DNA of 63,393 bases, counting the filler, from Basidioascus undulatus (lineage: Eukaryota): NCBI GenBank assembly GCA_000826855.1. It is 10 parts of 10 records of this genome, joined end to end, with 100 filler letters (N's around TTAATTAATTAA, not from the genome) between each part and the next. Parts side by side here need not be neighbours in the genome. Positions count along the whole stretch, not along the records: positions 25,489 to 31,750 come from JTLS01001776.1; 9 more parts are not named here. The stretch is one strand, 5' to 3'. Below are positions 6,282 to 63,311 of this stretch, piece after piece. The notes below the pieces were generated by a model. The model saw only the letters and a program-made list of their open reading frames with translations, did no database searches and was not told where the DNA came from. The translations under genes were made by a program, and so were the position numbers. Each line of letters starts with the position of its first letter. The first letter of the stretch is position 1.

Positions 6282-6381
6282 NNNNNNNNNNNNNNNNNNN
6301 NNNNNNNNNNNNNNNNNNNNNNNNNTTAATTAATTAANNNNNNNNNNNNNNNNNNNNNNNNNNNNNNNNNNNNNNNNNNNN
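6282..6381. other. Artificial contig linker
   Basis: 44 N + TTAATTAATTAA (stops in all six frames) + 44 N. Confidence 0.98.
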
Positions 6382-7890: not shown

Positions 7891-8394
7891 ACAGACAGTG
7901 ATGACGCTGTACAAGAGTCATGGTAAACGCTATGGAAGCAATCGAGAAATTGTGGGGCGAGCAACTGCCACGTTTCGTCTGAATCTGCGTTCACGTGCGT
8001 GTAAATTAGCTTGGGGGCTTCGAAGATTAACAATTAAGATCAATTATCATTTGTATGGGAGTGGTGGCAATGTGTAAGTGCAGGGATACAGTGACAACAA
8101 ATCAACGAGTCGGAGACTGCGAAGGCCAGCGCAGCCGAATAATGCGAGACCAATCCAACGAACCCGACCAACCTTCGTATACCTCTCATTCTTTCTTCTT
8201 CTCCTCCTGCACCACAACCCCATTCACAGGGGAGACCGACCCCGACCTTGACGCCGGCCCGTCCCGCCTCCGTCGCTTCACATCCCGCCTCAGCTTCCTT
8301 CGCAGCGCAGGGACGCCGAACTGGCACCATCTCCACACAGTCAACAGGGAGCGGGGGGTGGGGGAGGAGAGGGGGAGGAAGAGAGAAGACGGAC

Positions 8395-10328
8395 CTCGCC
8401 GGACGGCGCGACGCACACCCCAGTGCTCTGGGCCCGCCCACCCGCGCATCACGCCCTTGTCGAAGTAATCAAACATCCCATCGCCCTTCCCCACCTCCAC
8501 CATAGCCATGACGAGGTCCCTTTCATTCGGCGGGCGGCGGGGGTCGAACGTCTCCAAGCGGGTCAGAAGTGGTCCGTCCTCGCCGCCCTCGCCCTCTGCG
8601 CCGTCCTCCCCCTCGAACCCAGGCACACCGCCAAAGGCCGCGCCCGCACCCGCACCCGCATTGGCGGCAGACATCCAGAACGCGTCGTCCTCCCCGCCAG
8701 CGCCCCAGTCCGCCGCGGGCGAGTCAAAGAAGTCGCCAGCCTCCCCGCCCATGTCCCCGCCATCGTCGAACCCCCCCCAGTCGTCAAGCCCGCCGCCCCA
8801 GGAGCCGGAGGGCGACGGCGGCGCGCCGTCCGCCCCGCCATCGGAGCCGGATGCGTCGAAGGGGTTCGAGAAGTCTTGCTGCGCGGAAAGATCGGTGGAG
8901 AAGGTAAAGGAGGAGAGGGAGGGGCAGATGAGTTTGTCAGCGAGGATGTCGAGCGTCGGGAGGAACTTGGCTGTTCGCGATGGAGCACAAGGTCAGTCTC
9001 ATCTTCACATCTGGTCTCGAATCGAGCGGGAGCCACATACCCCTCAGCCCGCTAATATCGATCCTCGCGTCCTCCTCCTCCTTCTTCCCCCCTCCTTCCT
9101 CGTTCTCTCCCTCCTCCTCCTCCTCCTCCTCATCCTCATCCACCACGTCCCCCGAGTCAAACACGACGCGACCGGCGCGGTCGACGCCGAGGTGGTTCAT
9201 GAGCAGCCCGCCCGCGCCGCCCTCGTCGAAGTCGGCCGACGTCTTCTTGAACAGCGGGTCGACGGTGAACTCGAGGTCGAGCGATTTGGCGTGCAGGGGC
9301 GCGAAGTCGGGGAGGAGGGTGGAGGCGGAGCGGGGGGCCTGGATTGGGAGGATGGAGGGGAGGGAAGGGGGTGAGATGAGGACGTGGTGAGGGAAAGGAG
9401 GTTAGAGAGAGAAGGGAAACGCACACGGCGCCGCTTCGTCTCGCGCGGACAGTCCTCGTCCGCGTCCGAGCCGGCCTCGCGCTCTTCCTCCTGGTCCTGG
9501 GCGTCTCCTGCTCCGCGCACCAAATCCACGCGTCAGCACCTCAAATCCCAACTGCTCAAGGGTGGGCCAGAGAAGCCCATGCAACCACGCACCGCCCGCG
9601 GCCAGTCCGCTGATGAGCTTGCCCGCCTCGCTCGCAACGCTGTCGACGCGGCTCGTCCAGATCTTGACACACCCGTCGAGCGTGCAAGACGCCTTCTGGA
9701 AGTTGATCGAGTTGTCGGTGTCGGCGTTGCGGAGGAGGGACATGTCCGCGAAGTAGTCGATGAGGGCGAAGGACCACGTGTTGGCGGCGGTGATTTTCTA
9801 TTTCCATTCGACGACATTGGTCCCCGGGTGAGCGGTGATGGGGAGAGGCGGGTGGGCTGGAGAAAGGGGAGGGAGAACACGCACGTTGTCCGTAGCCAAC
9901 TTCATCCACTCCTCGAAGTTGCTCGCCATCACATCGATCGACACCGCCGGCGTCCCAGCAGGCGCATCCCTCGCGGGCGCGCTCACGCTCGCAAGGGGAT
10001 GCTTGCTGCTCAAGCTGGCGACGCGCCCGCCCGCGATGGTCTTGCGGCCCGCGGGCGCGTCGCCCTCGCTCTCGTCCAGCGCCCCCGGCGGCGGGTGGAA
10101 CGAGACGCGCCTGCGCCGCTTCTCCGCGGCGTCGTCGTCGCGGACGCGTGCGATGGGCGCCGCGAGAGGGAGGTAGGACTGCGCAAGCCCGCTCTTACGC
10201 GGCTTGGAGGCGCGCTTGGACGCGGCGGCGGGGCTCGAGTTAGCCGAGGAGGCGGACGAGTATGAGGCCGGGGAGGGCAGCACTTTTTTGGTGCGCCGTG
10301 GTCGGGGAGGAGTCGACACGTCCGGCAT
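8395..10328 (-). CDS. BRN1: Condensin kleisin subunit (Barren/CAP-H/Brn1), multi-exon; homology stops after WAGPEHW
   Basis: NFEEWMKLATDN, TWSFALIDYFADMSLLR, INFQKASCTLDGCVKIWTSRVDSV, DPLFKKTSADFDEGGAGGLLMNHL, YFD...WAGPEHW. Confidence 0.92.
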
Positions 10329-12661: not shown

Positions 12662-12761
12662 NNNNNNNNNNNNNNNNNNNNNNNNNNNNNNNNNNNNNNN
12701 NNNNNTTAATTAATTAANNNNNNNNNNNNNNNNNNNNNNNNNNNNNNNNNNNNNNNNNNNN
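12662..12761. other. Artificial contig linker
   Basis: 44 N + TTAATTAATTAA + 44 N. Confidence 0.98.
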
Positions 12762-19025: not shown

Positions 19026-19125
19026 NNNNNNNNNNNNNNNNNNNNNNNNNNNNNNNNNNNNNNNNNNNNTTAATTAATTAANNNNNNNNNNNNNNNNNNN
19101 NNNNNNNNNNNNNNNNNNNNNNNNN
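19026..19125. other. Artificial contig linker
   Basis: 44 N + TTAATTAATTAA + 44 N. Confidence 0.98.
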
Positions 19126-25388: not shown

Positions 25389-25488
25389 NNNNNNNNNNNN
25401 NNNNNNNNNNNNNNNNNNNNNNNNNNNNNNNNTTAATTAATTAANNNNNNNNNNNNNNNNNNNNNNNNNNNNNNNNNNNNNNNNNNNN
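25389..25488. other. Artificial contig linker
   Basis: 44 N + TTAATTAATTAA + 44 N. Confidence 0.98.
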
Positions 25489-27389: not shown

Positions 27390-27461
27390 CCTTCAGGCTT
27401 CGCCTCCTCGTGCGTTTTGCCTTTTGACCACCACCATCGCCTTCTTCTGCTCACCCCATCG

Positions 27462-30400
27462 ATGGACACAAGGGCTTTACTCTCGTCCTTCCTCGAATCG
27501 ACTGCCTCCGCCCACACCGAGCGTAAAGCCGCCCAGCTCTCCTCCCTCCTCCGCACCCCACCCCCCTTGCGCGGCCCAACCCCCCAAGCGCTGTCCTCTT
27601 TCCTCTCCCTCGCGCCCTCCTCCCCCCGCTCCTCACCCATCTTTCCTCCCCGAATAATCGGGCGCACTCGGAACATTTCAATCCCCCGTGCGCCCTTGCC
27701 AGCGCCCAGACACACGCATGTCCTCCGCAGCGGGATGTGGGACGTCGAGCCTGTGCGGGGGGAGGGGACGAAGGACGAGAGCGATGTACTGGCGTTCGAT
27801 CCGGTCCAGCTGGTTGATGACGCTGGGTGGGAAAGGCGCGAGCTGAGAGCGCTTGCGGAGGGGATGTGGTATGAGGAACGGGGGTGGGGGACGGACTGTG
27901 AGTGCCGTGGTGAGCCAGGGGTAGAGGGAGGACTGACGTGGGATGGGCGAGGGGACAGGGGACAGGATAGAAGTGGACGTCAGGCGTAAGGCGCTTGATA
28001 TGGGCTTGGAGGATGCGGGGATCGATGCTGCGGGGGTCTTGCACCGGTCTACCGCGCAGCTCGTCAACCTGTGTGTGGCTTCTGTCTTCTCTCCTCTTAC
28101 ACTTTCATCCTACTCAAGCCATCTCCTACAGCGAATCCCACAGCCCCCTCTCGACGCTCGCCATTCCCGCACCCCCAGGGTTTGCCCACCTTCCCTTCTG
28201 CCCGCGCTGCTTCTCGACGCTGTGCACATGCGGGCTCCTCCCGTCCAGTTCGTCTTCCTCAACCACCCCCATATCTTCTCCCCTTCTCGATCTCACACTT
28301 CCCAACCCAAAGATCCGGAATACACCTACCAGCCCCCTCTCTTCCTCCCTCCCCCTCCACCGTTTTCTCCTTCCCTCTCACCCCAAAAACCATGCGGACC
28401 GGACTGCCACATCCTCAAGGTCCCTCCTCCCCTTCCCACTTACCATTTACCTCGCACTCACCCCACCCCACAGAACGGCCCACACCCCGAACCCCTCAGC
28501 GAGTCCGACCTCGAAACCCTCCGAGCTCTCTCATCCTTCCCCGACTTCGCCGCTTCCTCACCCTGCCAGACCGCCGCGGCCGCAGGGCTGCCATGCTACC
28601 TCGTCCGTCCCCCTTTTCCTCCCTCCTCACCCTCATATCTCTCTCATCCCTGACCTTCTTTGATTTTGGACAGGTAGCGCCCCACCTCTCCGCCCTCCTC
28701 TCCGCCCTCGCTCCTGCCTCTCCTCCCGCCGCCGCCCGCCCCTCACGCAAGCGTGAGCGACACATACGGCCGCACCTCCGGATGGCGCTGAATGATGAAC
28801 GGACGGATTTGAGGCATCCGTTCGTCCGCTCTTGGAGTGCAGAGGGGAAGCAGAAAGCGCTGACCTGGGGAAGGGAGACGGGACTAGCCATGTCCCCTGC
28901 CACCACACCGGCATCCCATGCACGCTCGCGCCCGCGCGCCTGTGCCCGTGCAGCGCACGCCAGACGTGGTGCGAGGCTTCGTGTGGGTGTGCGGCTGACT
29001 GTGCGTCCCCCCTGCCACCTCTTTCCCCTTTCCACCCCACCGACTGCTCCCCGTTCCACCGTTCCATTCTCTTTCTCCCTCTCTCTCCCCTTACCCCTTT
29101 CTCCTTCCCCCGTCTCCCTTCCACTCTGCCTCCGTTTCCTCCTTGGGACATGCTGAATGGGCACTGACGCATGGGTGTGGACCAGGCAAGCGCCGCCACC
29201 GCGGCTGCACCTGCCTTTCCCAAGGCCGCGCGTGCAAGCCGCAGACGTGTGCGTGCATCCGCGACGGGAGGGAGTGCGATGCGGATGCGTGCCATGCTTG
29301 TCGTGCGTGCCCCCTCCCCTCCCTCTTCTTCCTCTACCCTTCTCACTGATGGCTTTGAGTTGGATGAGCAGTAGGGGACGCCCGCCTCCCCCCCTCCCCC
29401 GGGAAGCGGCTCCGCGCGCCGTGCGCGAACTCGGGAATTCTTTATGGGGTAGCGAAAGTCCGTCCGTTTTTCTCTTCTCCACTTGTCCTATCCGGACAGC
29501 GTTTCTGATGGGGGAGGATGGGGCGGATGGATCGTAGATGCTCGCGCCCGGCAAATCAGCGACGCACGGCGCGGGGCTGTTCGCGCTGGAGGATATCGCG
29601 AAGGGGGAGTTTATCGCGCCCTACGTGTGTTCTTCTTCCTCTTCTTTTTTCACTTTCCCGCTGTTGCGCGAGAGGGGAGCCGAAATTGATTCGTCGATGG
29701 GCGCGGACAGGCAGGCGAAAGTATCGGGAGCGCGAACGACTTCCAGGGTCGCGGGTGGGTCGTCATGCAGTTCTCGAATCCTCCTCCTCCGAGGAGGAGT
29801 AGCATCGGGACTGAAGTAAAAGCTGATGGGGCGCGGTGCGGAACAGGCCGCTGTACGATGTGATTGGGCGGAGCTGTACGTCGCTTTCTTCCTGTCTCCG
29901 ACGCATCTGTGCTGAAATGGATGGGATTGCAACGGGGCAGACCTGTTCGATACAAACGACTTCCAAACGATCGATGGTTGTGCGTGCCCAACTTCTCATT
30001 GCTTTATTCGCAGCTCCGTCCCTTCCGTCGTGCTGACCGGAATGCTGCAGTTTCCATCGGCGTGCGTCCCGTCCCTTTCCCCCTCCCCCCCTCATGTGCA
30101 TTGCCCTGCGAAGTGCTGACCCAACAAATACAGAGCCTAACCCGCTTCATCAACGCCAGCGACTACGCGTCGTCCTCGCCCGCACGCCCGGCTGTCCGCC
30201 CCAACTGCGCGGCGCGCCGTACGTCCTCCCCTTTCCTCGCTTTCCCCCTTCCACAGCCGTGTGATGGGCGGGTACTGACGATTCAGGCCGCGGATTTGGG
30301 ATGGGACAGATCGGCGCGTCAGAGGAGGAGCGGACCGGATCGCTTTCTACGCCAGTGCGTGGTATCCATACTCCCTCCTTCTTTCTCGGATCCCCCGAAT

Positions 30401-30641
30401 TCTGAGGGTGACAGTTTATCTCAAATCTCCATCCACAGCATCGGACATCCCCGCCTTCTCCGAGCTCTTCTTCGCGTACGGGAAAGACTTCTGGGCTTCC
30501 AAAGAGAACGGGAAGAAGCAGAGCGGGAGCGAGTGGAGCGATGCGGAAGAGGAGGAAGAGGAGGAACAGGTCGAAGAAGAGGTGGAGGTGCAGAGAGAAG
30601 GACCGCGCACGAGGAGTCGAGTCGAGCGAGGGAGGGGATGA
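27462..30641 (+). CDS. Enhancer-of-zeste/Kmt6-like CXC-SET histone (H3K27) methyltransferase homolog, many exons
   Basis: FCPRCF and PCGPDCH (cf. EZH2 FCRRCF, PCGPQCY); CXC PCHH..C..CPC..WCEASCGCAADC..GCTC..CAC..RECDADACHAC; SET HGAGLFA, GEFIAPYAGE, YDVIGRSYLFD, RFINAS, PNCAAR, RIAFYA, ELFFAYG. Confidence 0.88.
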
Positions 30642-30874
30642 AGGGAAAGGAGAGGAAGACGTCGGCGAGGGGGTGAGGTGAGGATGGACGGCGGGGTGCG
30701 CGGATATGCGAGTCGGATGGTGGTGGAGTGGAACTTTCGCTGGCATGATACGTTGCCGTGTCGCTGTGTTGCGTTGTGTTTTACTGCAACGACGAAACAC
30801 CAGCATCGTGCGAAACACCGCAGCAAGCGACGACAATCCACGAATGACATGCGAATACCTATGTCTTCCCGCCC

Positions 30875-31750
30875 TCAAACGGCCTGCGCGCCATTGCGTC
30901 CCGCCTTATACGGCCTAATGAACGCGTCCTCCATCTCCTCCTCCTCCCTCTGCACGCGCTCGTGCATATCTCCCATCGCCTGCCTCGCTCTCCGCCGGCC
31001 AGTTGAGCGCCGCGGCGCGGTTGTCCGCTTTGACGCGCTCGACCTCGCGCGCGTCCCACTGCCGCCAGTCGCGCTCCATCTCAAACACCCACAGCTTGCG
31101 CTGCGGCCACGGGCGTGGGTACAGCCCTGCATTCCGCGTATCGGACGGCCGGTCCCGCGTCCGCGCCCACTCGCGCTCGGCTGCGTGCGAGAGAGACTTG
31201 TTGGACAGGATGTCGAGCGCGGGCTCGAGCTGTCGGCGGGCGGGGCAGGTGAGACATGAGAGAGGAAATGAGACAGAGGAGGGGTAAGGACGGACGAGAG
31301 AGGCGCGCATCAGCGCGCGGTTTGCGTCCCGCCGCTCGGCCATCTCTGCATCTTCGCGGGCTTGCTTCCTGCAAATGCGTTGGTTAGAACGTCAAGACTG
31401 AAGTGGAATGGAATGAATGCAAGACAAGAACGCACTCCTTGTTGACAGCCGAGACGACGTGGGGCGTCTTGTTTTGCTGTTCGGACGATCACACAGTTTC
31501 ATGAGCAAGGCGCAGGCTTTGGCAGCCAGACCAGCTCAGACCAACGCACCTGATCCGCCTTCGCCATCAGCGCCGTAAAGTCCACCGCGTTCGACGGCCT
31601 GCTCACGCCCGCCCGCGCCGTGGGTGTGGCCCTGCCCGATGGGGCCTTCAGGCGCGCCGCAGCGGCCGGCGAGCCCTTCGCGCCTGCAGCGGTGGACGAC
31701 GCGAGGGAGGGCCCTCTGCGCGCAGCGATGAGTGTGGAGCAGAGTAGCCA
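30875..31750 (-). CDS. Hypothetical protein 3' part, possible 1-nt frameshift near 30997
   Basis: GT-AG spliced exons KQAREDAEMAERRDANRALMRASL / LEPALDILSNK...KLWVFEMERDW; plausible tail RQAMGDMHERVQREEEEMEDAFIRPYK lies in another frame. Confidence 0.45.
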
Positions 31751-31850
31751 NNNNNNNNNNNNNNNNNNNNNNNNNNNNNNNNNNNNNNNNNNNNTTAATT
31801 AATTAANNNNNNNNNNNNNNNNNNNNNNNNNNNNNNNNNNNNNNNNNNNN
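31751..31850. other. Artificial contig linker
   Basis: 44 N + TTAATTAATTAA + 44 N. Confidence 0.98.
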
Positions 31851-33656
31851 GTGCGCGCTTGCGGGATGTGGATGCGGGCGGGGCGGATGAGATGAGGGGA
31901 GACGGGAGGGAGGAAATGGGATGGGTGGAAGGGGGGAAAGGACGCACAAGCTGCTGCTGTCGTGCCCACTCCGCCTGCTGCTGCTGCTGCTGCTGCAGCG
32001 CCCACTGCTCCTGCTGCTGTTGCTGTGCGTACGGGTTCTGCGTGCCCCCCAACCGTACCCACTCAGCCCCACGCGCTCTGTGGGCCATCGATTGTGAGTT
32101 GCCCGACGCACGAACGACGTAAACTGCGGCTGGAGCTGCTGCTGCTGGCCGCCCGAGACGTCGACGAGGAAGCCCGTCTGCTGGGGCTGCTGGACGGGGA
32201 AGCCCGTCGGCTGCGTCGGGATCGGGTTCCCGAAGAAGTCGACCTGCTGTGGCTGCTGCTGGTTGTAGGCGTTCGGTGCCCAGCTGGTGTGCCGCATCAC
32301 CAGGTCAGCTGCTGCGAACGAGGAAAAGCAACAGAGGGAATGCGCGGGGGAGTGGGAGAGGAGGAGGGAGGGGAGGACGAACAGCTGGGAGTTGTCGTCG
32401 AACAGGGCGCGCTCGGTCGCCGATTCCGCCTCGGCCTTGCGCTTCTCTTCCTCCGCCTTCGAGAGCGCGAGCGCGCGCGCCAGGTCGTCTTCCCTGCCCG
32501 CGCCACCCCTCGCAAACATTTCAGTCAACCTCCTCACGCCGAACGGGGGAGAAAGGCAGCGTGGGGGGAGGGGGAGGGGGAGGGGGAGGGCAACGCACTC
32601 CTTGCTCTGCCTCTTGATCCTCTCCTGTTCGTCCTGGGCGCTCCGCAAGCTCGCCTCCATCGCGCGCTGAAGATCCGCGTCGTCGTCTCCGCGCCCCCTG
32701 CGATTGGGCGGGGTGCTCCTGCTCCTTCGTCCGGCGGTACCATACCCGCCCTCGCCGAGCCCAAGCTCCGCGGCCTCGTCCGCGCCGTACCCGCTCTCGC
32801 CCGCGCGCCCGCGGCCTGTCATGCGGTCGCGCATGCTTGCGCGGTTCCGGCGCTCGTCCTTGAGTCGACCCTCGTCCTGAAGCAGGTTCGTGATATCCTT
32901 CGCCTTCTGCCGCACGTTCGCGCCCTGGTCCTTCCCGTCCTCGTCCACGTACTGAAACTCCTTGAGCGTCTTGACAATGTACATGTTGTCTCGGAAGTAG
33001 AGGCACACGTTGTCCGACCCCGCGTGCAGGAGGTAGTCGAGGAGCGTGAGCGCCTGCGGGTAGGCGCGGGGGTGCGTCAGCGCGGAGATGGGGTGGACGA
33101 GGGGGAGGGGGAGGACGGACCTTGAAGACATGTCGCCAGTTCTTGCCCTTGTCATTGAGACGCTTATCAAGCATCTCCATGATCTCGACAAAATCGTTCC
33201 TATACCACCGCCTCAGCTCAGTCGACCGCCATCTCCGAGCTCCCAGCTGAAACGCACTGGTTATACGACAGCTGCGCAAGCTCGTTCATCTGCGTCCCGG
33301 ACGGGCCCCACGGGTCGTTGGACGTCGCCTCGCGGACCTTGGCTGTAGCCACCGAGCGGGAGCACAGGAGCCTTTGCATCAGCTACGAGGGCGCGTGGGG
33401 TGGGGGGGGGCAGGGCGAGCGCGGCGGACCTTGGACATCTGAGTAGCCCTTTGTGTAATTTTTGGCTACCCGCAAAGCTAGAGGAGGGTTGCCAAGATGG
33501 TGCGTGAGTGAGTCGTAGCGGGCGGAAAGGGCGGGCGGGCGGAGGCAGACGCTGCTTACCGGACTTGCCGCTGGAGGAGGGGGGACAGAGCGGCGTGTGA
33601 GCTTACTCGGGGGATGGGTGGTGAGAGTCGACGTACAACGACTGCATGGTCGACAT
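31851..33656 (-). CDS. Epsin (ENTH + two UIMs, Ent1/Ent2-like), 3' truncated
   Basis: [87 protein letters not shown]; UIMs DADLQRAMEASL and EDDLARALALSK; QPTG-type repeats. Confidence 0.96.
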
Positions 33657-35161: not shown

Positions 35162-38095
35162 ATGGCGCCGTTTACTCGCCCAGAGACGGTCCTCAAGGTG
35201 CGTTTGGCGCTCAAATGTGGGGAGAGGTGCTCGAGACTAGGGCGGAGAGCTGATTCGGACGTGGTGGCGCCGAGAACAGCGGGCTGAGGGTGAGCTGGCG
35301 GTTCTTCGCTACTTTGCTTTTTGAGGGTGGTTTGGGGGTGGAGGAGGTCATGGGAGAGGTGATGATGGGTGCAGGAGCGCGGGGGGCGGGGGATGGGAGA
35401 GAAGGATGGAAGGAAGGAAGGGAAGAGGCGGGCGCTGACCCCCCTCCCGTCTTCTCTCGCAGAGCTCGTGGCCGTAAACCAGCACACGGCCGCGCTCCAG
35501 TCGCTGCAAGAGATGTTCACGTCGAAGCGGTTCCGGTCTACGCCGCTCGCGTCGCTCGAGCCCATCATGCTGCGCTTCGTCGAGCTCTGTGTCACCCTCC
35601 GCAAGGGGCGCACGGCCAAGGAGGGCCTGCTGCAATACAAGAACATCTCGCAGAACACGAACGTGCAGTCGATCGAGGTCGTCCTCCGCCGCTTCCTCGC
35701 GCTCGCGGAGGAGAAGGTCGTCGAGGCCAAGGCCAAGGCGGACGCGCTTCACCCCGCCGGCGACGAGGCGGCCAAGGAGGATGGCGACGGCGTCGAGGAC
35801 CTCGAGGCGTCCGAGACGCCCGAGAGCATCCTCCTGTCTGCTGTGTCGTCCGACCAGAGCAGGGACAGGACCGACCGCGCCATCGTCACCCCCTGGCTCA
35901 AGTTCCTCTGGGAGGCATACCGCACAGTGCTCGACACCCTCCGTAACAACGCCCGCCTCGAGATCCTCTACCAGGTTCGTCCCCTCCCCTCCCCTTCACT
36001 TTCTCTTTTCCACTCGTACCCGCACCCCGCATGCTGACAATCGACTCTTTTCGCACCACAGCAAATCGCGACGCAGGCGTTCCAGTTCTGCCTGACGTAC
36101 ACGCGCAAGACCGAGTTCCGGCGGCTGTCTGAGCTCCTGCGCTCGCACCTCGCGAACGTCGCCAAGTACGCGCACCAGACGCACTCGATTAACCTGACGG
36201 ACGCGGACACGCTGCAGCGCGCGCTCGACACGCGCTTCGCGCAGCTCAGCGCCGCCGTCGAGCTCGAGCTCTGGCAGGAGGCGTTCCGCTCGGTCGAGGA
36301 CATTCACCAGCTCCTCACCATGGCCAAGAAGGCGCCGCGCCCGGCCATGATGGCGGGGTACTACGAGAAGCTCACCCGAATCTTCCTCGTCGCCGAGAAC
36401 CACCTCTTCCACGCGGCCGCGTACGCGCGCTACTACGCCCTCGCACGCTCCACCGTCAAGACCGACGAGGACCACCAGCGCCTCGCCGGCTTCGTCCTCC
36501 TCTCCGCGCTCGCTGTTCCCGTCCACGCTGCGTCGGGCGACGACAACGTCAAGGCGACTTCCCGCCTGTCCGCGCTCCTTAACCTGCAGAAAGTTCCCTC
36601 GCGCGGCGCGTTGCTCAAGGAGGCTGTACGTTTACGCTACTTCACGCTTCCGTACGGCTTGACGCTCATTTCCTGTTTCGGGTCCAAAGCTCTCCCGCAA
36701 CGTCCTCAAGCGTGTCAGCCCGTCGCTACGTGCGCTCTACTCGCACCTCGAGGTCGACTTCCACCCGCTGAGCATCTGCTCCTCTGTCGCGCCCATCATC
36801 GCCGAGATCGCCTCGAACGAGGAGACGGCGAAGTACGTCAAGCCGCTGCAGCACGTCATCTTGACGCGTCTGTTCGAGCAGCTCGCGCAGGTGTACGAGA
36901 CGGTCGAGATCGGCCACGTCCTCGACCTCGTCAAGCCGCTCGGCAACTTCGGCGAGAAGGAGATCGAGAAGTTCGTCATTGGCGCGTGCGCGACCGGCGG
37001 CCTCTCGGTCCGCGTCGACCACGTCAAGAAGAGCATCACCTTCCTCGAGGACGTCTTCTCCCCGCGCGCCGCGGCGATCGCCGCCCTCGGCGACGACGAC
37101 GTGCCCAAGCTCCAGGCGACTCCGGCCGAGCTCGTCCGCAACCAGCTCTCCCGCCTCGCCGCGACGCTCCAGGCCTCGCTCGCGACCGTCAAGCCCGAGA
37201 CGCTCGACGCCGCCGCCGAGGCGCAGAAGGCCGCCTTCGCCCGCGCCGTCGCCTCCGTCGAGGACGAGCGCAAGGCCTACCTCCACCGCCGCGCGATTCT
37301 CGCTCGCCGCCGCGAGCTCGCCGAGGAGCTCACTGCCCGCCGCGAGCGGGAGGACAGCGCTGCCCGCGCTGCCCGCGCCCGCGCCGCCGCTGCTGAGGAG
37401 TCCAAACGCCAGGCTGAGGAGTCCAAGCGCCGTGAGGCCGAGCGCATCCGCAAGGAGCTCGAGCAGGTCCGCATCGACGAGGCTCGCAAGCTTGCGCAGA
37501 GCCTTGCGGAGAAGAGCGGCCTCAAGGTCGACGTCAACGTGCGTTATCTCCTTTTCGGTTTCGCATTGTCTGTCGAGTACAGTTCGCTGATGCTGCTTCC
37601 GGGTGCAGGACGTCGACTCGCTCGACACCAACAAGCTTGTCCAGCTCCAGGTCGAGCACCTCGAGAAGGAGAAGTCGCAGCTGACCGAGCGTCTCCGCGT
37701 GACCTTCAAGCGTCTCGACCACCTCGAGCGTGCCTTCCGTCGCGAGGAGCGTCCCTTGCTCGCGGCCGACTACGAGCGGCAGCAGAAGGAGGACCGGGCC
37801 GTGCACCAGCAGGCCGTCGCGCAGAAGCGCGCCGACGCGCGCGCCGCGCACGAACGCGACATCGCGACCAAGAAGCGCCTCGCGCGCGTCGTGCCCGAGT
37901 ACGAGGCATTCCGCGCCGAGCTCGAGGCCCGTCGCGGGGACGAGTACCGCCAGCGCAAGGAGGCCGCCGAGCGCAAGATCGCGGAGGAGAAGGAGAAGAA
38001 GAAGCAGCGCATCTTGGCGGAGCGCGCGGCGGAGCAGGCTGCCCAGGAAGAGCGCGAGCGGAGGGCCGCGGAGGAGGAGGAGCACGAGCGGCTCG
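35162..38095 (+). CDS. TIF32: Translation initiation factor eIF3 subunit a, 3' truncated
   Basis: [104 protein letters not shown]. Confidence 0.97.
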
Positions 38096-38195
38096 NNNNN
38101 NNNNNNNNNNNNNNNNNNNNNNNNNNNNNNNNNNNNNNNTTAATTAATTAANNNNNNNNNNNNNNNNNNNNNNNNNNNNNNNNNNNNNNNNNNNN
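38096..38195. other. Artificial contig linker
   Basis: 44 N + TTAATTAATTAA + 44 N. Confidence 0.98.
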
Positions 38196-44437: not shown

Positions 44438-44537
44438 NNNNNNNNNNNNNNNNNNNNNNNNNNNNNNNNNNNNNNNNNNNNTTAATTAATTAANNNNNNN
44501 NNNNNNNNNNNNNNNNNNNNNNNNNNNNNNNNNNNNN
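44438..44537. other. Artificial contig linker
   Basis: 44 N + TTAATTAATTAA + 44 N. Confidence 0.98.
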
Positions 44538-45289: not shown

Positions 45290-47520
45290 ATGACCTCCCC
45301 CTCGCCCCTCCGGTCCTTCATCTCCCTCCCGCGCTCGCGCTCCCCCTCGCCCACACCCTCGCTGGCCCTCTCCCCCACTACCACCACCGCCGCCGCGCCC
45401 GCCGAGAGGAGAAGGGCGTGGGCGTTCCGGGCGCTTGCGCTGCTGTGCGCGTGCTCGTTGAGTGTGGGGTCGCACTAGTGCGTTTTAACGAGATTGATTT
45501 TGCTGGGGGTCGAGGAGGGCGTAAGGCTGAGGGACGGGAGGGGATGGGACAGTGGGAGGGAGCTGCTCGGTCCGCTGAAGACGCAGCTGCTGCGACGCAC
45601 ACACTCATCCAATGTCGACTTTTCACTGTGCGTTTTCCGTTTATCCTCCTTTTCCAAGGAAGAAGGTAGCTGACCAGCCCCACCCCGCACCAGGATCATA
45701 TCCGCCTACTCGCTCAACTCGACCTGGACGCCGCTCATCGCGGGCCTGCTCACCGTCCGGCTCGGCGCGCCGCTCTCCTCGATCCTCGCGACCGCGCTCA
45801 TCTTCACCGGGCAGTTCACGCTCCTCCTGGGTAGCGCATCCAACAGCGTTCCAGCCATGGTGGGCCTCCCGTTCCCATCCATCCACCCTCCCTCCCGCTC
45901 TCACACTAAACCCCCTCCACCCCTCCCACGCGCCCCAGCTCCTCGGCATGCTGATCTTCGGCCTGGGCGTCTCCCCGCTCGCCGTCGTCCAAGAGACACT
46001 AATCATCCGTTTCTTCCTGCACTCCTCCCTCGGGACCTCCCTCGCGCTCGGCCTGCTCGCCGGCAAAGGCGCCTCCTTCCTCTCCTCTCTCACCGCCTAC
46101 CCGCTCTCCTCCCTCTCCCCCCAGGCGCCCTTCCTCATCGCAACCGCCCTAGCGGCGTTCTCGTGCCTCGCGAACTTTGCGTTCCTGGGCGGCGATCGCT
46201 GGCTTGCGCGCGGGGCGGGCGTGCAGGAGGAGCGGAGGGAGGCGGAGCGCAGGGCCGCGGAGAGGAAGACGGTCAGGGTTGGGGACTTGGCGAGGTTGGG
46301 GGATAGGCTCTGGGTTTATGTTGCGTTTTGTGGGGCGTGCGGGGCGGTCTGGACGCCGTTTCAGCATAATGCGGCGTACGTCCCTGTCTCTGAGTGGCTG
46401 TGGGTTGCCAACGCAGACTGACTTGAATGTGAATGGACGCGACAGCCATATCATCCAGGAGCGATACGGCCTCTCCGAAGGCTCTGCTGCGACGACAGCC
46501 TCATTCGTACACGCAGCGAGCCTGTTTCTCTATCCCATTGTGCGCTATGCTGTCTCACGACCCACTTTAGCCCACTGAAGAGCGCTGAACTTTCCCTCCC
46601 ATACGTCCCAGACCGGCTTCGTCGTCGACCGCTACAAGTCCGCCACGATTGGTGCGTTGGCATTTCTCCCCAACCTACCCTCTTCCACGTCCGCTCTGAC
46701 CTCCTGCTCCTCTACCGGCAGTCCTGAAGCTCTTTATCCTCTCCTCCATCCTCACCTTCTCCGGATTCCTCGTTCGTCTTCTCCTTCTTCCCCTCCTCCG
46801 CTCACTCCCCTTCCTACATATCCCAACCACGCATAACTGATCCCACCCCTTCCACACGCAGTGGCTCGCCCTCCCCCCCAACTGGACGCGCACCCCAATC
46901 CCCGCGATCTTCTCCTTCGGGATCGGGCAAGGCTTCGCCACGCGTCAGTCTCCTTCCCTTTCCCCCTTCTCTCTCCCTCTGCATTTCCTACTAACCCCCA
47001 CCCCCATCCCCCAGTCCTCCTAGTCGTCATCGTCCCCCACCTCGTCCCCTATCAGTACACGTCCACCGCCCTCGGCGTTCACAAGTCCGCCGAGACGGCG
47101 CTCGCTGTCCTCTCCCAGACGACCGCAGGGCTCATCCTCGACGGCGCGCGGCGGCCCCCTGGGACGGCAGCGCCCGCGCCGGTGGGGGTCCTACTACGAT
47201 TCTTCCTCCTCCTCAACGCGCTTCAGCTCTGCGCGGCTGTGGCGCTGTGGCAGATGCAGGTGACGCACGAAGAGGACGCAGCTCTTGCGGGGGCAGTGGA
47301 AGAGGAAGATGGGCAGGTCGAGGTGGAGGTTGGGGTTGGGGAGGAGAGGGATGTGCGCTTGGGCGGCCGCGCAAGGAGGAGCTCAGAGACGCCACTGTTG
47401 CTGCATGCCAGCGTGGATGAGGAGCGGGGGAAGGCGCGCGCGACGAGTGGGAGGGACCGTGGAGCGATGGTGGGAGAACGGGAATGGAGGAGGGGGAGGA
47501 GGGGCCCACCCCCCCGATGA
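45290..47520 (+). CDS. MFS transporter (MFSD1-like), multi-exon; C-terminus appears cut
   Basis: ALLCACSLSVGSHY, LLGPLK, AYSLNSTWTPLIAG, FGLGVSPLAVVQETLI, GFVVDRY, TALGVHKSAE; many hydrophobic segments. Confidence 0.87.
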
Positions 47521-48600
47521 CGAGCCGGTCGATGTAGAGCGGCGCGAGGAGAGATGAGAGGAGCGTTCCTTGCACGCCGAGGACGGTGTAGGTTGCGAGT
47601 TTGTCGGAGCAGGAGAGGGAGAATGTGGTGGGGGCGTCGGCGCGGCCTGGTGATCGGCGGGTTAAGCCAGAGGAAGGCAGTAGAGAGTGGAGAAGAGGAG
47701 AAGGAGCAGGGGATTGAGGTAGAGGGAGGAGGACGCACCCGGCTTGGTCCGCAGCGCACCGAAGTTCGTGTACCCCTTCCGGCCGCGCAGGGCGTCCGCG
47801 GCGGGGTTCGGGGAGTCCGAGGCGGTCGTGCCCGGCGGTGGCGGTGGAGTCGGGGCGGGGGACAGCGGAGAGTCGTACAGCGCTGCTTCGGCGGGGTCTT
47901 GCGTGTCCGATAAATACACAGTGGACGCATCCCCACCTGCACCCCAAAACATCCAACGTCGCTCAGTCTCAGAAGGAGGGGGCAGGGGGGTGTTGCATGG
48001 GCGCACAGGGAAGTTTCGATATGTACAAGTTCAGCTCTGCGTCTTCGCGCAGGCCGAAGAACGGGGCTTCTGAAGAACCGTCGGGGGGAGGATGAGGATA
48101 GGGCCGCTTTTCGAGCCAGGCGGATTGGCCTGCTTGAGCGAGGGACAGCTCGGCGTGCAGCCACCGGATGAGCGAGCGGCGCGCGAGGATCTCGGCGTGG
48201 CAGTCGTGGATGACCTGCAGTACCCACCGCCGCCGTTCAGCATTCGCGGGACAGAGTGAAAGGCGAGAAGTAGGAGGAGAAACGCACATCTCCACATCTC
48301 GGCAGCTTCGTCCAGGGCAGACACTTCACGCCCGTAGCGAGCGCGACGCACTCCCTCTCGCCCGTCCTCCGATCGCGGAGGACGAAACCAGCCAGTACAG
48401 TCCCTATTCCGCCCCACCACTATCACCATCAATCCTCTCGAAGAAACAGCGAATGCGAGAAAAGTGAGTGCACATTCAGGGCTCCCATTATCCCGCCGGC
48501 GGGGCTTCCCCTTGGTGGGGAGCTGATCGAAAGTGGCGAAGCAGGATTCGGCGATGAGGGACGTTAGTGCGAGGAGGTCTGGTGGGGGGAGGGTGCCCAT
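47500..48600 (-). CDS. TAD1: tRNA-specific adenosine-37 deaminase (Tad1/ADAT1); homology ends abruptly
   Basis: KGKP, VALATGVKCL, HDCHAEILARR, LYISKLPCGDAS, LRTKPGRADA, SLSCSDKLA..VLGVQGTLLS...PLYI. Confidence 0.92.
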
Positions 48601-50718: not shown

Positions 50719-50818
50719 NNNNNNNNNNNNNNNNNNNNNNNNNNNNNNNNNNNNNNNNNNNNTTAATTAATTAANNNNNNNNNNNNNNNNNNNNNNNNNN
50801 NNNNNNNNNNNNNNNNNN
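50719..50818. other. Artificial contig linker
   Basis: 44 N + TTAATTAATTAA + 44 N. Confidence 0.98.
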
Positions 50819-57059: not shown

Positions 57060-57159
57060 NNNNNNNNNNNNNNNNNNNNNNNNNNNNNNNNNNNNNNNNN
57101 NNNTTAATTAATTAANNNNNNNNNNNNNNNNNNNNNNNNNNNNNNNNNNNNNNNNNNNN
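57060..57159. other. Artificial contig linker
   Basis: 44 N + TTAATTAATTAA + 44 N. Confidence 0.98.
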
Positions 57160-57246: not shown

Positions 57247-58798
57247 ACTACAAAGTGAATCACATGTACCTCGCCCCGACCGGCCTCCGCGCAATCCAGC
57301 GCGAAGACCCCGAGGCGAAGCTGATGCGGCAGTACGACATCCGGAGCTTGCGCGGGATGTGGCTTGCCGGCGAGCGGAGCGAGCCGGGCATGTACGTAGT
57401 CCCTTTCCCCCTTCTTCTCTTCCACTCAAGGGGGAGATGGTGATGCTGATAAGGGATGCGGAGCCAGTGTATCGAGGTACCAGCGCCTCCTGAACGAGCT
57501 GTCCGGCCCGCGCGCGCTGGTGGTGGACAACTACTGGTCTGTTAGTCCTCTTTCCCTCCTCCCTTCTCCCCATTCTCTCTTTGCCCCACTCCCTGCCTTG
57601 TCTTCCCAAACTCATCTGCCCCTATCGGCAGACCGAGTCCGGCTCCCCCATCACCGGCCTTTCCCTCAGCACGGCCTACGCGCCCCTCCCCCCGCGCCCC
57701 GGCGCAGCGGGGATCCCCCTCCCGGGGATGGACGTGCGAGTCGTCGACGATGCCGGAAAGGAAGTCCCCCGCGGGCAGCTTGGGAACCTCGTGCTCGCTC
57801 AGCCGCTGCATCCGACGTTCTTGCCCGGGCTCTGGGAGAATGAGGAGGGGTTCGAAAAGTACGTGGCGGCCGAAGCGGTTGGTTTGTGTAATTTCGTGAC
57901 AGGAAAACTGACAAGGACAACAGGAGCTACTTCAAGAGGTTCCGTGGGAAGGGAGGCTGGTTCGATACGAGCGACGGTAAGGCTGTTTCCCTCGTTTCTT
58001 CTACTTCCCGGACGGCTGCGGGCTGTGGATATTCTTTTGAGTCGGAACTGACAATTTTCACTCTCTCCTGCAGCCGGCATGATCGACCAGGACGGCTACG
58101 TCCACGTCCTGTCGCGCAGCGACGATGTGCGTCATTTCCCCTCAGCCCTCCTTCATCTTCTCAGATCTCTGACGGTTTTCTCTGTATCTCATTCAAAAGG
58201 TCATCAACGTCGCGGGCCACCGTCTCTCCACCTCGCTCATCGAGCAGGTGATCGTCGGGCACTCGTCGGTCGCAGAGGTGCGTCAACGACCACAGCCAGC
58301 CAGCCTTCCATCGCATTCTGACAGTGTCTGTGTTTGTGTCTACTAGGCGTGCGTCGTCGGCCTCCCGGACAAGATCAAGGGCCACGTCCCCTTCGCACTG
58401 GTCTCGCTCGCGAGCGGCCAGTCTGCAACGCAGGACATGTCTGCCGTGCTGAAAGACGTGAACGCCCACGTCCGGAGCGAGTGCGTCCTTCTCCCTCCTC
58501 CCTCCCTCTCTCCCTTTCCTCTCCCTTACCGCAACTGATATTTCCTCTTCCCTTCCGCCGCAGGATCGGCTCCATCGCCTCGCTCGCGGCAATCCTCGCC
58601 GCGCCGAGCGGGCGGCTGCCCAAGACGCGCTCAGGCAAGACGTTGCGGCGCACGGTGCGCGCACTCGTCGAGAACGGCGCGGAGGGCAAGTGGGACGGCG
58701 AAGTGCCCGTCCCGCCCACGATCGAGGACCGCGGCGTCGTGGAGGAGGCGAAGAAGGCGGTGTATGAATGGTTCAGGAAGGGGTCGGCGAAGCTGTGA
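57247..58798 (+). CDS. Short-chain acyl-CoA synthetase (propionyl-CoA synthetase/ACSS3-like), 5' truncated
   Basis: APTGLRAI, LAGERSEP, VDNYWS/TESG, GWFDTSD, RSDDVINVAGHRLST, PDKIKGHVP, LPKTRSGKTLRR, PPTIED. Confidence 0.93.
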
Positions 58799-62029: not shown

Positions 62030-63250
62030 GCACCATAAGTATTAAGTATACAATACTTTTGCATCTTTGACAAAGAAGATGGTGGAATGTGGGTGCTGTG
62101 AGTGGTGTAAGCAGGTCACCAACAACCTTCTCATGCTGCCAGCATTCCTCAACCTCCCATCTTCAGCATTGTCATGTGTACCAGTCTTCAAGCCATTGCG
62201 TGGGAGTATTTCTTATGGTTTTATTGCTAACCATGGAAAAGTGTCAGAGTGACTGGTCTGTTTTGTTTCTCCTTTTCATGAGTCCTCCGCTGCCTGACAC
62301 CCTGGCACATAACAATTACAGGATCTGGAGTGCTCATGCACATGATTTGGTGCATCTGTCTACTCTTATGGTTGATCCACTCTGATGGGAGCACACAGAA
62401 GGACAGGTCACCGCTCTCTGTCTGTCTTGGTGGGATTCTTCCTGTCCTGCACACAGCAGTCCATCATCACACATAGTACTAGCTAACTGCTGTATCCATG
62501 CATGTTTTTTTTAGTCTGACACCCTGCTAGTGATTACAGACCTATGCCTGTCCAGCAAGACATATATCTATCCAGCCTGATGCAGCTTGTCTGCAATTTC
62601 AGAGACATATCTATTTTGGCAGACACATGTCAGCCAGATGCATGTCTATCCAGAGAGATGCATCCTATCTGCAGTAGAGACAGATGTATATGCTGGCAGA
62701 CAAATGTCTATCCAGCAAGATGCATGTCTATCCACATCACCAAACCAGACCACCAGACCAGACCAGAAGTTCAGACCAGACCAAACTGTCAGACACTAAA
62801 CCAGAAATTCAGACCACACCTGACCAAAATATCAGACCAGACCATAAATTCAGACCAGATCAAACTGTCAGACCATACCAAAAGTTCAGACCAGACCAGA
62901 CTGTCAGACACATGTCCAACCAGCCATACAGACATCTCAGTTTTTTTCAAGGCATGTGATTTCTTGCCAGATGCATCTTGACTGGCAATCCAGAACCAGG
63001 TCTACTTGCCCCAACATGTACTCCTGTGCCTCCTGTCCACAAACTCCCAATGTCTACTGCAGACCCCCCCTGTCTATCATAGAGAGCCCCTCCTTATCAT
63101 GAAGGAATCCTGTCAATTGGTGGACATCCACATGTCTGGGAGAGTGTAGACACATGGTGGACAACTCATTGGCACTCTCTGCCACCCAGTCTACCATGGC
63201 TTCCATGAGCTCTGACACATTGTGCACACTATTTGTAGTGATTGGACAGT
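62030..63250. mobile_element. CpG-purged repeat/transposon relic
   Basis: Only about three CG in 1.2 kb, CA/TG-rich, with internal short repeat arrays; no intact transposase recognised. Confidence 0.55.
62740..62935. repeat. (CAGAC) array with higher-order ~34-nt unit
   Basis: TTCAGACCAGA[C/T]CA[A/G]ACTGTCAGAC recurs near 62770, 62849 and 62885. Confidence 0.85.
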
Positions 63251-63311
63251 TTCGGAGAATGCGCATGGGTCTCAAAAAGATGAAAAGATTGTCGGGAGTT
63301 CAAAAATGCTG

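Follow-up and report, generated by a model that had tools for sequence, protein, structure and literature searches.

An expressed E(z)/Kmt6-type gene of Basidioascus undulatus with alanine in place of the NHS-motif histidine

The window analysed here, a stretch of 63,393 nucleotides of Basidioascus undulatus DNA (filler included), carries an E(z)-type gene in which alanine stands in place of the histidine of the NHS motif, and this gene is intact and transcribed. Its E(z) gene structure, its transcription and splicing, the reality of the GCC codon, the CXC domain and the other motifs are established below. Literature given with the word excerpt is cited from partial text of the source.

Gene structure and family assignment

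The spliced model places the E(z)/Kmt6-type gene on the + strand at 27462-30641, where 17 exons make up 633 codons, with the CXC region upstream of the SET region (Table 1). All 16 introns (54-185 nt) are of the GT..AG type and the reading frame is open across the 17 exons, which agrees with an earlier claim, made from the DNA alone, that the gene otherwise looks intact. The 11-nt microexon (exon 14) is flanked by introns that share the donor GTGCGT and a branch-like TGCTGAC, and both are supported by spliced contigs of run X3. In total, X3 contigs back 13 of the 16 predicted introns, 11 of them through 10 joints and two through loose ends, and in the SET-coding part, exons 10-17, every join agrees exactly with the model. 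The clean splicing around the SET core (exons 13-15) that had been claimed earlier was recovered in these joins. The start codon in exon 1 and three introns are without transcript confirmation. Intron 1 (27910-27970) is crossed by one X3 contig, running over 27916-28070, so that this intron may be retained or the 5' end may be alternative; intron 3 (28248-28312) lies at an X3 depth of about 0.2 and for that reason lacks confirmation; for intron 8 (29303-29374), the acceptor may lie at 29371 or 29374. The host of the gene is an intron-rich, GC-rich eukaryote, and its splice signals are fungal, basidiomycete-like in look.

Table 1. Exons of the E(z)/Kmt6-type gene, positions along the window
Feature	Position	Strand	Content and X3 support
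Exon 1	27462..27909	+	Proposed ATG 27462; codons 1-149, N-terminal region; no Pfam match; X3 contig over 27559-27769
Exon 2	27971..28070	+	3' junction 28070/28132 is an X3 joint
Exon 3	28132..28247	+	Cys cluster FCPRCF..C.C; 5' junction confirmed by X3
Exon 4	28313..28419	+	Contains KPCGPDC; X3 joint 28417/28472 (cut +2) consistent with junction 28419/28474
Exon 5	28474..28602	+	X3 loose end 28604 runs on into opening letters of exon 6
Exon 6	28674..28819	+	X3 joint 28819/28888
Exon 7	28888..29000	+	First half of Cys-rich CXC region; weak TCR/CXC match, 11.9 bits; X3 joint 29000/29186
Exon 8	29186..29302	+	CXC domain proper; Pfam PF18264 preSET_CXC
Exon 9	29375..29457	+	CXC-SET linker; X3 joint 29457/29538
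Exon 10	29538..29624	+	SET start: HGAG (GxG cofactor motif), terminal conserved Tyr; X3 loose end 29625 leads to exon 11 start
Exon 11	29711..29754	+	SET-I region; X3 joint 29753/29846 (cut +1) consistent with junction 29754/29847
Exon 12	29847..29875	+	X3 joint 29875/29941
Exon 13	29941..29979	+	YLFD.. strand; X3 joint 29979/30134 with microexon letters in between
Exon 14	30051..30061	+	11-nt microexon; identical to the 11 letters between 29979 and 30134 in the X3 contig
Exon 15	30134..30218	+	RFINAS (GCC 30155-30157 at motif His position), 11-residue insertion, PNC; X3-spliced on both sides
Exon 16	30310..30354	+	..DRIAFYA SET strand; X3 joints 30218/30310 and 30354/30439
Exon 17	30439..30641	+	ELFFAY (catalytic Tyr), acidic tail, stop TGA 30639-30641; X3 contig over 30439-30553

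The assignment of the gene to the E(z)/Kmt6 type, put forward in the sequence-only reading, is supported by the CXC-then-SET order, the absence of a Cys-rich post-SET region at the 3' end and a preSET_CXC match above the cut-off, features that point to a putative member of this family. The profile PF18264 was matched with 29.2 bits by exon 8 alone and with 30.2 bits in a second scan, against a cut-off of 23.3, and the SET N-terminus starts two exons 3' of this CXC exon. As a single-exon query, exon 10 scored 17.8 bits with Pfam SET PF00856, below the cut-off of 22.4, over profile positions 1-19. The phmmer search of solved structures with exon 10 gave weak matches of 12.3-14.5 bits to Set1/MLL, Chaetomium EZH2 (13.8 bits) and NSD, four of the 19 matches listed being to non-SET chains. 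Exons 15-17 matched no SET profile in the single-exon Pfam scan, and no solved SET chain was matched by exon 15 in phmmer. Against the same structures, exons 15, 8, 7, 16+17, 4+5, 3 and 17 returned either nothing or chance matches (PilQ, SETMAR with 14.4 bits, defensins). The exon-wise Pfam scan of exons 1-6 recovered 0 families, the N-terminal E(z) domains included, and an Atlas search with exons 4+5 gave no usable match. On visual inspection, FCPRCF and KPCGPDC, the two Cys clusters, look similar to the EZH2 region ahead of SANT2. In a regex scan, RFINAS..PNC was followed by ELFFAY, in the correct order; RFINHXCXPN and ELXFDY are the two most conserved SET motifs (PMC9692433, excerpt). The probable SET membership of the protein rests on the sub-cut-off fragment score of exon 10 together with these motifs.

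The protein resembles E(z), EZH2 and Kmt6, which form the catalytic SET subunit of PRC2, in having CXC directly before a probable C-terminal SET region, Cys clusters upstream and no Cys-rich post-SET; it also has GxG, the pre-SET-I Tyr, the motif Asn and the ELxF.Y Tyr in common with them. It differs from them in reading N-A-S for N-H-S and in an insertion of 11 residues before PNC. Fungal E(z)/Kmt6 proteins include Neurospora SET-7, Fusarium KMT6, Cryptococcus Ezh2 and Chaetomium Ezh2. With 633 residues, the protein is short beside fungal Kmt6, which is longer than animal E(z) (PMC8788455, excerpt) and reaches 1090 residues in PaKmt6.

The codon at the motif histidine position

At positions 30146-30166 the window reads TTC ATC AAC GCC AGC GAC TAC, with GCC at 30155-30157, two substitutions from CAC and three from CAT. 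In the DNA data sets X1 (2014, word depth 16.7) and X2 (2025, word depth 45.6), which come from two studies and one of which is possibly the source of the window itself, the region 27400-30700 lies in one contig each, with 0 other letters and 0 gaps. The codon is also covered unchanged, with no other letters, in the X3 spliced contigs, in which the joint sides of exon 15 measure 39 and 45 letters. X3 is labelled 'DNA?', and these contigs are therefore taken as cDNA by inference; none of the runs listed as carrying the region is recorded as RNA. The identity of X1 and X2, along with the unchanged GCC in spliced contigs, makes a read error, an unspliced artefact or a dead gene unlikely. The sequence-only reading had regarded the His-to-Ala change as genuine and a read error as unlikely, and had proposed reads and transcripts as the check; applied to the contigs of X1-X3, this check gave GCC throughout and no CAC, and the claim holds.

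It is very improbable, in consequence, that an assembly or read error at this codon, a wrong splice model or a pseudogene lies behind the feature. Such an artefact might be suspected from the unconfirmed start codon and introns 1, 3 and 8, from the contig that crosses predicted intron 1 and from the inferred cDNA status of X3, but it is opposed by the same GCC in both DNA data sets and the spliced contigs, by the splicing of exons 10-17 and by the open frame. No alternative His-coding exon lies in the window, as a six-frame scan of all 63393 bases gave no NH[SC]..PN or RF.NH in or near the gene; the sole RF.NH-type match in the window is located at 63238-63252 on the - strand, in an unrelated stretch. 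The 33-nt insertion was also considered as a missed intron and rejected on account of its insufficient length, its lack of GT..AG and its presence in the spliced contigs.

The cofactor loop and the catalytic signature

The motif N-H-S (RFxNHS) is replaced by RFINAS in X1, X2 and the spliced contigs of X3 alike, and 11 inserted residues follow directly after NAS, ahead of the PNC turn. As the insertion adjoins NAS, the whole cofactor loop appears to be remodelled, and not one residue only. What S-adenosylmethionine binding and methyl transfer otherwise require is kept: HGAG supplies GxG, exon 10 closes with the conserved Tyr, and both the motif Asn and the ELFFAY Tyr are present. We take the two tyrosines to be equivalent to Y641 and Y726 of EZH2, and the Ala of RFINAS to be aligned with its NHS histidine, H689. 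The gap-free alignment with human EZH2 proposed in the sequence-only reading is in keeping with RFINHXCXPN as the general SET motif (PMC9692433, excerpt). PR/SET enzymes, for example PRDM9, are active without the NHS-motif histidine. In EZH2, H689A serves as a methyltransferase-inactive mutant (PMC11601213, excerpt), in line with what the sequence-only reading had stated. The present protein is like this mutant in having Ala at the motif His of an E(z)-type SET, at what we assume to be the equivalent position, but the mutant is engineered, whereas the change described here is natural and occurs in a distant homologue, in which the loop insertion could compensate. The motif Asn hydrogen-bonds the cofactor, and the His of SET7/9 points outward in the ternary complex (PMC5094779, excerpt).

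A natural departure from NH(S) in an otherwise conserved and expressed chromatin protein is also a feature of MLL5, SETD5, Set3 and UpSET (PMC5094779, PMC9692433, excerpts). These proteins belong, however, to a SET family different from that of the E(z)-type protein, and in them XGXG is missing as well, together with the cofactor Tyr, the motif Asn and two Tyr of the active site (PMC5094779, excerpt). The joint loss of XGXG, the cofactor Tyr and both NH residues, which is of the MLL5/Set3 type, was not found here, where the histidine alone is replaced.

Activity of the protein and its biological meaning

The best explanation, which we hold tentatively and at a little below even chances, is that the gene product is a PRC2-like E(z) protein that would fold and would still methylate with its remodelled loop; its PRC2 membership, folding and retained activity are what we infer from the features described above. 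The protein would adopt the SET pseudoknot despite NAS, would sit in a PRC2-like complex and would methylate, perhaps more weakly. In such a protein, the cofactor would be held by the motif Asn and backbone contacts, and the enlarged loop would take over the packing role of the lost imidazole. The two-base codon change and the insertion suggest that several events took place in the loop. Several such events, with the other catalytic residues kept, seem more in keeping with ongoing selection for catalysis than with a long history of inactivity, and we lean slightly towards a retained, possibly reduced, methyltransferase activity. Such activity is also favoured by the loss of the histidine alone, unlike in the MLL5 group, by the roles of the motif Asn and of the SET7/9 His, and by the PR/SET enzymes. 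Counting against it are the location of the histidine within the near-invariant RFINHXCXPN (PMC9692433, excerpt), the inactivity of EZH2 with H689A at the presumed equivalent position (PMC11601213, excerpt), the sub-cut-off SET score and the lack of a SET match for exon 15. The insertion beside NAS may just as well reflect relaxed constraint at a cofactor site no longer in use.

It is also possible, if doubtful, that the protein is a non-catalytic E(z), which would serve as the scaffold of a PRC2-like complex or have another chromatin role, and which would have ceased to transfer methyl groups as a result of losing the NHS histidine and of an insertion that disrupts the cofactor loop. The status of H689A as the standard inactive EZH2 mutant speaks for such a role, as do the natural NH(S) changes that go with inactivity in Set3, UpSET and MLL5 (PMC11601213, PMC9692433, PMC5094779, excerpts), the fact that the His-to-Ala change is real and transcribed, and the position of the 11-residue insertion right at the cofactor loop. 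In the SET proteins known to be inactive, however, several motifs have been lost jointly, the cofactor-binding Asn included (PMC5094779, excerpt), whereas the present protein retains GxG, the Asn and both Tyr. We consider it unlikely that the E(z) orthologues of this fungal group all read NAS or are otherwise without the histidine while being normal H3K27 methyltransferases, in which case the feature would be ordinary for the clade and odd only beside animal EZH2. Such a lineage-typical variant would accord with the strong divergence between fungal Kmt6 and animal E(z), which is found beyond CXC and SET and to some extent within them (PMC8788455, excerpt), and with the distance of the protein from sampled sequences suggested by exon 8, which found no relative among 1.84 billion protein representatives (0 matches at E <= 0.001). 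It is opposed by the conservation of RFINHXCXPN in a fungal SET survey (PMC9692433, excerpt), and no His-less fungal E(z) was found in the literature covered by a full-text search, the excerpts of fungal PRC2 reviews and that survey. The string RFINAS occurred in the full-text literature only as part of Spanish or Portuguese words, and the excerpts of PMC13066641 and PMC7348808 contained nothing on E(z) active-site residues. If close relatives share NAS and methylate normally, the finding reduces to a clade-specific motif variant.

The searches for relatives were conducted with contiguous exon translations of 28-149 residues as queries. Exon 15 extended by 14 intron-coded residues produced 20 candidates, exon 1 produced 1310, and exons 4+5, read through the in-frame stop-free intron, produced 1749; no homologue at E <= 10 was among them. 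In the metagenome scans, 595 pattern matches to exon 8 plus flank and 594 to exons 16+17 read through were obtained, none of which was upheld by tblastn. These blank results reflect the weakness of such short queries and are no sign that relatives are absent.

To inactivate SET enzymes, EZH2 and many others among them, laboratories mutate the histidine of the NHS motif. A natural E(z) that has long been without this 'essential' histidine may be either the first natural silent PRC2 core subunit, with a scaffold- or reader-type role, or an active H3K27 methyltransferase in which an enlarged loop replaces the histidine; we regard this as quite possible, though short of probable. If true, either outcome would open the role of the NHS histidine to testing in a natural system. 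Being intact and expressed, an E(z) of this kind is a natural experiment that asks whether PRC2 is kept for non-catalytic functions in a fungus, and also whether the histidine is replaceable once the neighbouring loop changes. Cryptococcus is the only basidiomycete named as well studied in a 2022 PRC2 review (PMC8788455, excerpt), and the gene described here bears on the persistence of PRC2 and H3K27 methylation in basidiomycete-like fungi.

Nature and sequencing support of the motif change

Exon 15 (30134-30218) encodes RFINAS, with GCC at 30155-30157 in the place of the N-H-S His codon of SET enzymes, which is two substitutions away from CAC and three from CAT. Between NAS and the conserved PNC turn lie thirteen residues, as against two in EZH2, which corresponds to an 11-residue insertion in exon 15. 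The insertion behind NAS was absent from the sequence-only reading. An alternative His-coding exon was considered and rejected, since no NH[SC]..PN motif occurs in any of the six frames of the 63393-base window; the sole other RF.NH-like string (63238-63252, minus strand) is unrelated.

The gene region occurs in three sequencing runs, none of which is on record as RNA, and their contigs were compared over 27400-30700. In X1 (2014; word depth 16.7) and in X2 (2025; word depth 45.6) a single contig spans this whole region, with neither a gap nor a differing letter. The two runs belong to different studies, and because one of them could be what the window was built from, they count as one to two independent confirmations. 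The third run, X3, shares its sample with X2 and bears the label 'DNA?', its library type not being on record. Its intron-less contigs of the E(z)-type gene have a depth of 2-6, like an RNA-seq library, and X3 is most simply read as cDNA; a processed DNA copy, the formal alternative, fits poorly with a contig keeping intron 1. Spliced X3 contigs span exon 15 and its borders (joint sides, 39 and 45 letters) with no differing letter, which places the GCC codon in the transcript. The sequence-only reading had proposed a natural His-to-Ala change in the NHS motif and advised its confirmation in reads; the change proved real, GCC being carried by X1, X2 and the spliced X3 contigs alike.

Gene model and surroundings

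The model, built from a reading of 27500-31500 and the stop-to-stop frames, comprises 17 exons on the plus strand (27462-30641) and 1902 coding bases, i.e. 633 codons and the stop. The 16 introns measure 54-185 nt and are all GT..AG; a CTGAC-like branch site is present in most of them. The short X3 contigs leave out exactly the predicted introns, 13 of which are backed by ten joints and two loose contig ends (at 28604 and 29625, running on into the beginnings of exons 6 and 11), including all introns inside the SET-coding part. The parts without transcript confirmation are the start codon and introns 1, 3 and 8, whose acceptor, in the case of intron 8, may be 29371 or 29374. An 11-nt microexon (30051-30061) encodes four SET-core residues, and its identical 11 letters are carried by the X3 joint 29979/30134; each adjacent intron combines a GTGCGT donor with a TGCTGAC branch-like site.

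Predicted intron 1 (27910-27970) is covered by the X3 contig 27916-28070, spliced at the following intron, which represents either retention of intron 1, in which case a stop would close the frame at 27987-27989, or a different 5' end and a start codon further downstream. The 54-nt intron 28420-28473, whose GTCCCT donor is unusual, reads in frame without a stop and is spliced out in an X3 contig; its retention would add 18 residues with the frame unbroken. All three runs show a roughly three- to ten-fold increase in word depth over the GAG/GAA-rich acidic-tail stretch 30508-30618, and this low-complexity sequence also occurs in short contigs from elsewhere.

The window is ordinary nuclear DNA. 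The Pfam scan covered 150 of the 170 listed long open frames (the other 20 overlap the gene or lie beyond 59.5 kb), and no further PRC2-type domain was found among those scanned. Paired runs of 44 N, with 12 bases between them, recur every ~6350 bases, and one pair follows the gene at a distance of ~1.1 kb; they have the appearance of masking or scaffolding marks rather than of a biological feature.

Features of the window and exon joints of the E(z)-type gene
Feature	Position	Strand	Source
Condensin subunit 2 (Cnd2)	8189-9797	-	Pfam, long open frames
ENTH-domain gene	32524-33285	-	Pfam, long open frames
eIF3a	35366-37393	+	Pfam, long open frames
Adenosine-deaminase (editase) domain gene	47216-47962	-	Pfam, long open frames
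AMP-binding enzyme fragment	57494-58048	+	Pfam, long open frames
Exon joints in X3	28070/28132, 28419/28474, 28819/28888, 29000/29186, 29457/29538	+	Spliced contigs
Exon joints in X3, SET side	29754/29847, 29875/29941, 29979/30134, 30218/30310, 30354/30439	+	Spliced contigs
Paired N runs	6282-6381, 12662-12761, 19026-19125, 25389-25488, 31751-31850, 38096-38195, 44438-44537, 50719-50818, 57060-57159		

Family assignment

Pfam and structure searches were run exon by exon on contiguous translations. Exon 8 matched PF18264 (preSET_CXC) with 29.2 bits, or 30.2 with its flank, above the cut-off of 23.3. Exon 10 aligned to SET profile positions 1-19 with 17.8 bits; a fragment of this kind is expected to stay under the cut-off for the whole domain (22.4). 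Exon-wise phmmer against solved structures gave mostly chance matches; exon 10 produced weak hits (12.3-14.5 bits) to Set1/MLL, Chaetomium EZH2 and NSD chains, 4 of its 19 rows being non-SET. A fungal SET survey singles out RFINHXCXPN and ELXFDY as the two motifs best conserved in SET domains (PMC9692433). The gene carries, in this order, RFINAS..PNC, unique to its locus in the window, and ELFFAY, which has one further chance match. No Cys follows ELFFAY and a Cys-rich post-SET is thus missing, so that the layout is that of E(z), with CXC directly before a C-terminal SET. The upstream FCPRCF and KPCGPDC clusters and the CXC cysteine layout presumably follow EZH2 as well, and NAS stands where E(z) is defined by NHS. 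Judged by its sequence, the gene is filed as E(z)/Kmt6-type, in agreement with the earlier assignment, which is carried by the preSET_CXC score, the SET motifs and the CXC-SET order. No relatives were recovered by word-indexed protein searches with exon queries, by an exhaustive HMMER search with the CXC exon, or by metagenome scans; all of these blanks reflect the shortness of the queries and none shows absence.

Catalytic signature and possible function

The gene keeps GxG (HGAG), the motif Asn, the terminal Tyr of exon 10 and the ELFFAY Tyr, the last two of which we take to be the equivalents of EZH2 Y641 and Y726. With these motifs present and every SET-part intron supported, the earlier view of an otherwise intact gene holds. 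An artefact or a pseudogene is contradicted by the contigs of all three runs and is highly improbable. On the best-supported reading, the organism expresses this gene as its E(z)-type SET subunit, in which the cofactor loop has been remodelled. Methyltransferase activity that is retained, though possibly weakened, is slightly favoured on the sequence, because only one signature position is lost, and because several mutational events fall in the loop while the rest of the signature is intact. According to one structural study of MLL5, the motif Asn makes the cofactor hydrogen bonds, the SET7/9 His faces outward in the ternary complex, and the naturally inactive MLL5/SETD5/Set3/UpSET proteins lack XGXG, Y and NH (PMC5094779); unlike these proteins, which lose the three jointly, the gene keeps GxG, Tyr and Asn. 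Weighing against retained activity, the fungal SET survey describes Set3, with RRS in the place of NHS, as inactive (PMC9692433).

A non-catalytic scaffold is a serious, somewhat less probable, competitor. The motif His is near-invariant, and the engineered human EZH2 mutant H689A, with Ala at this His, serves as the methyltransferase-inactive form in one study (PMC11601213), as the sequence-only reading had maintained. A variant typical of the clade, which overlaps with retained activity and would make the feature ordinary, is rather unlikely; a His-less fungal E(z) is mentioned neither in the full-text literature searched nor in passages of fungal PRC2 reviews and of the fungal SET survey. 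The interpretation offered earlier, a non-catalytic PRC2 subunit or paralog or else a divergent active site, thus stands in part: the identity of the gene and the genuineness of the change are upheld by Pfam, motifs and run contigs, and its two functional outcomes carry the weights given here. The loop changes, together with the intact remaining signature, suggest continued selection for catalysis, and a natural His-less E(z) would be new, provided that its relatives do not all share NAS.
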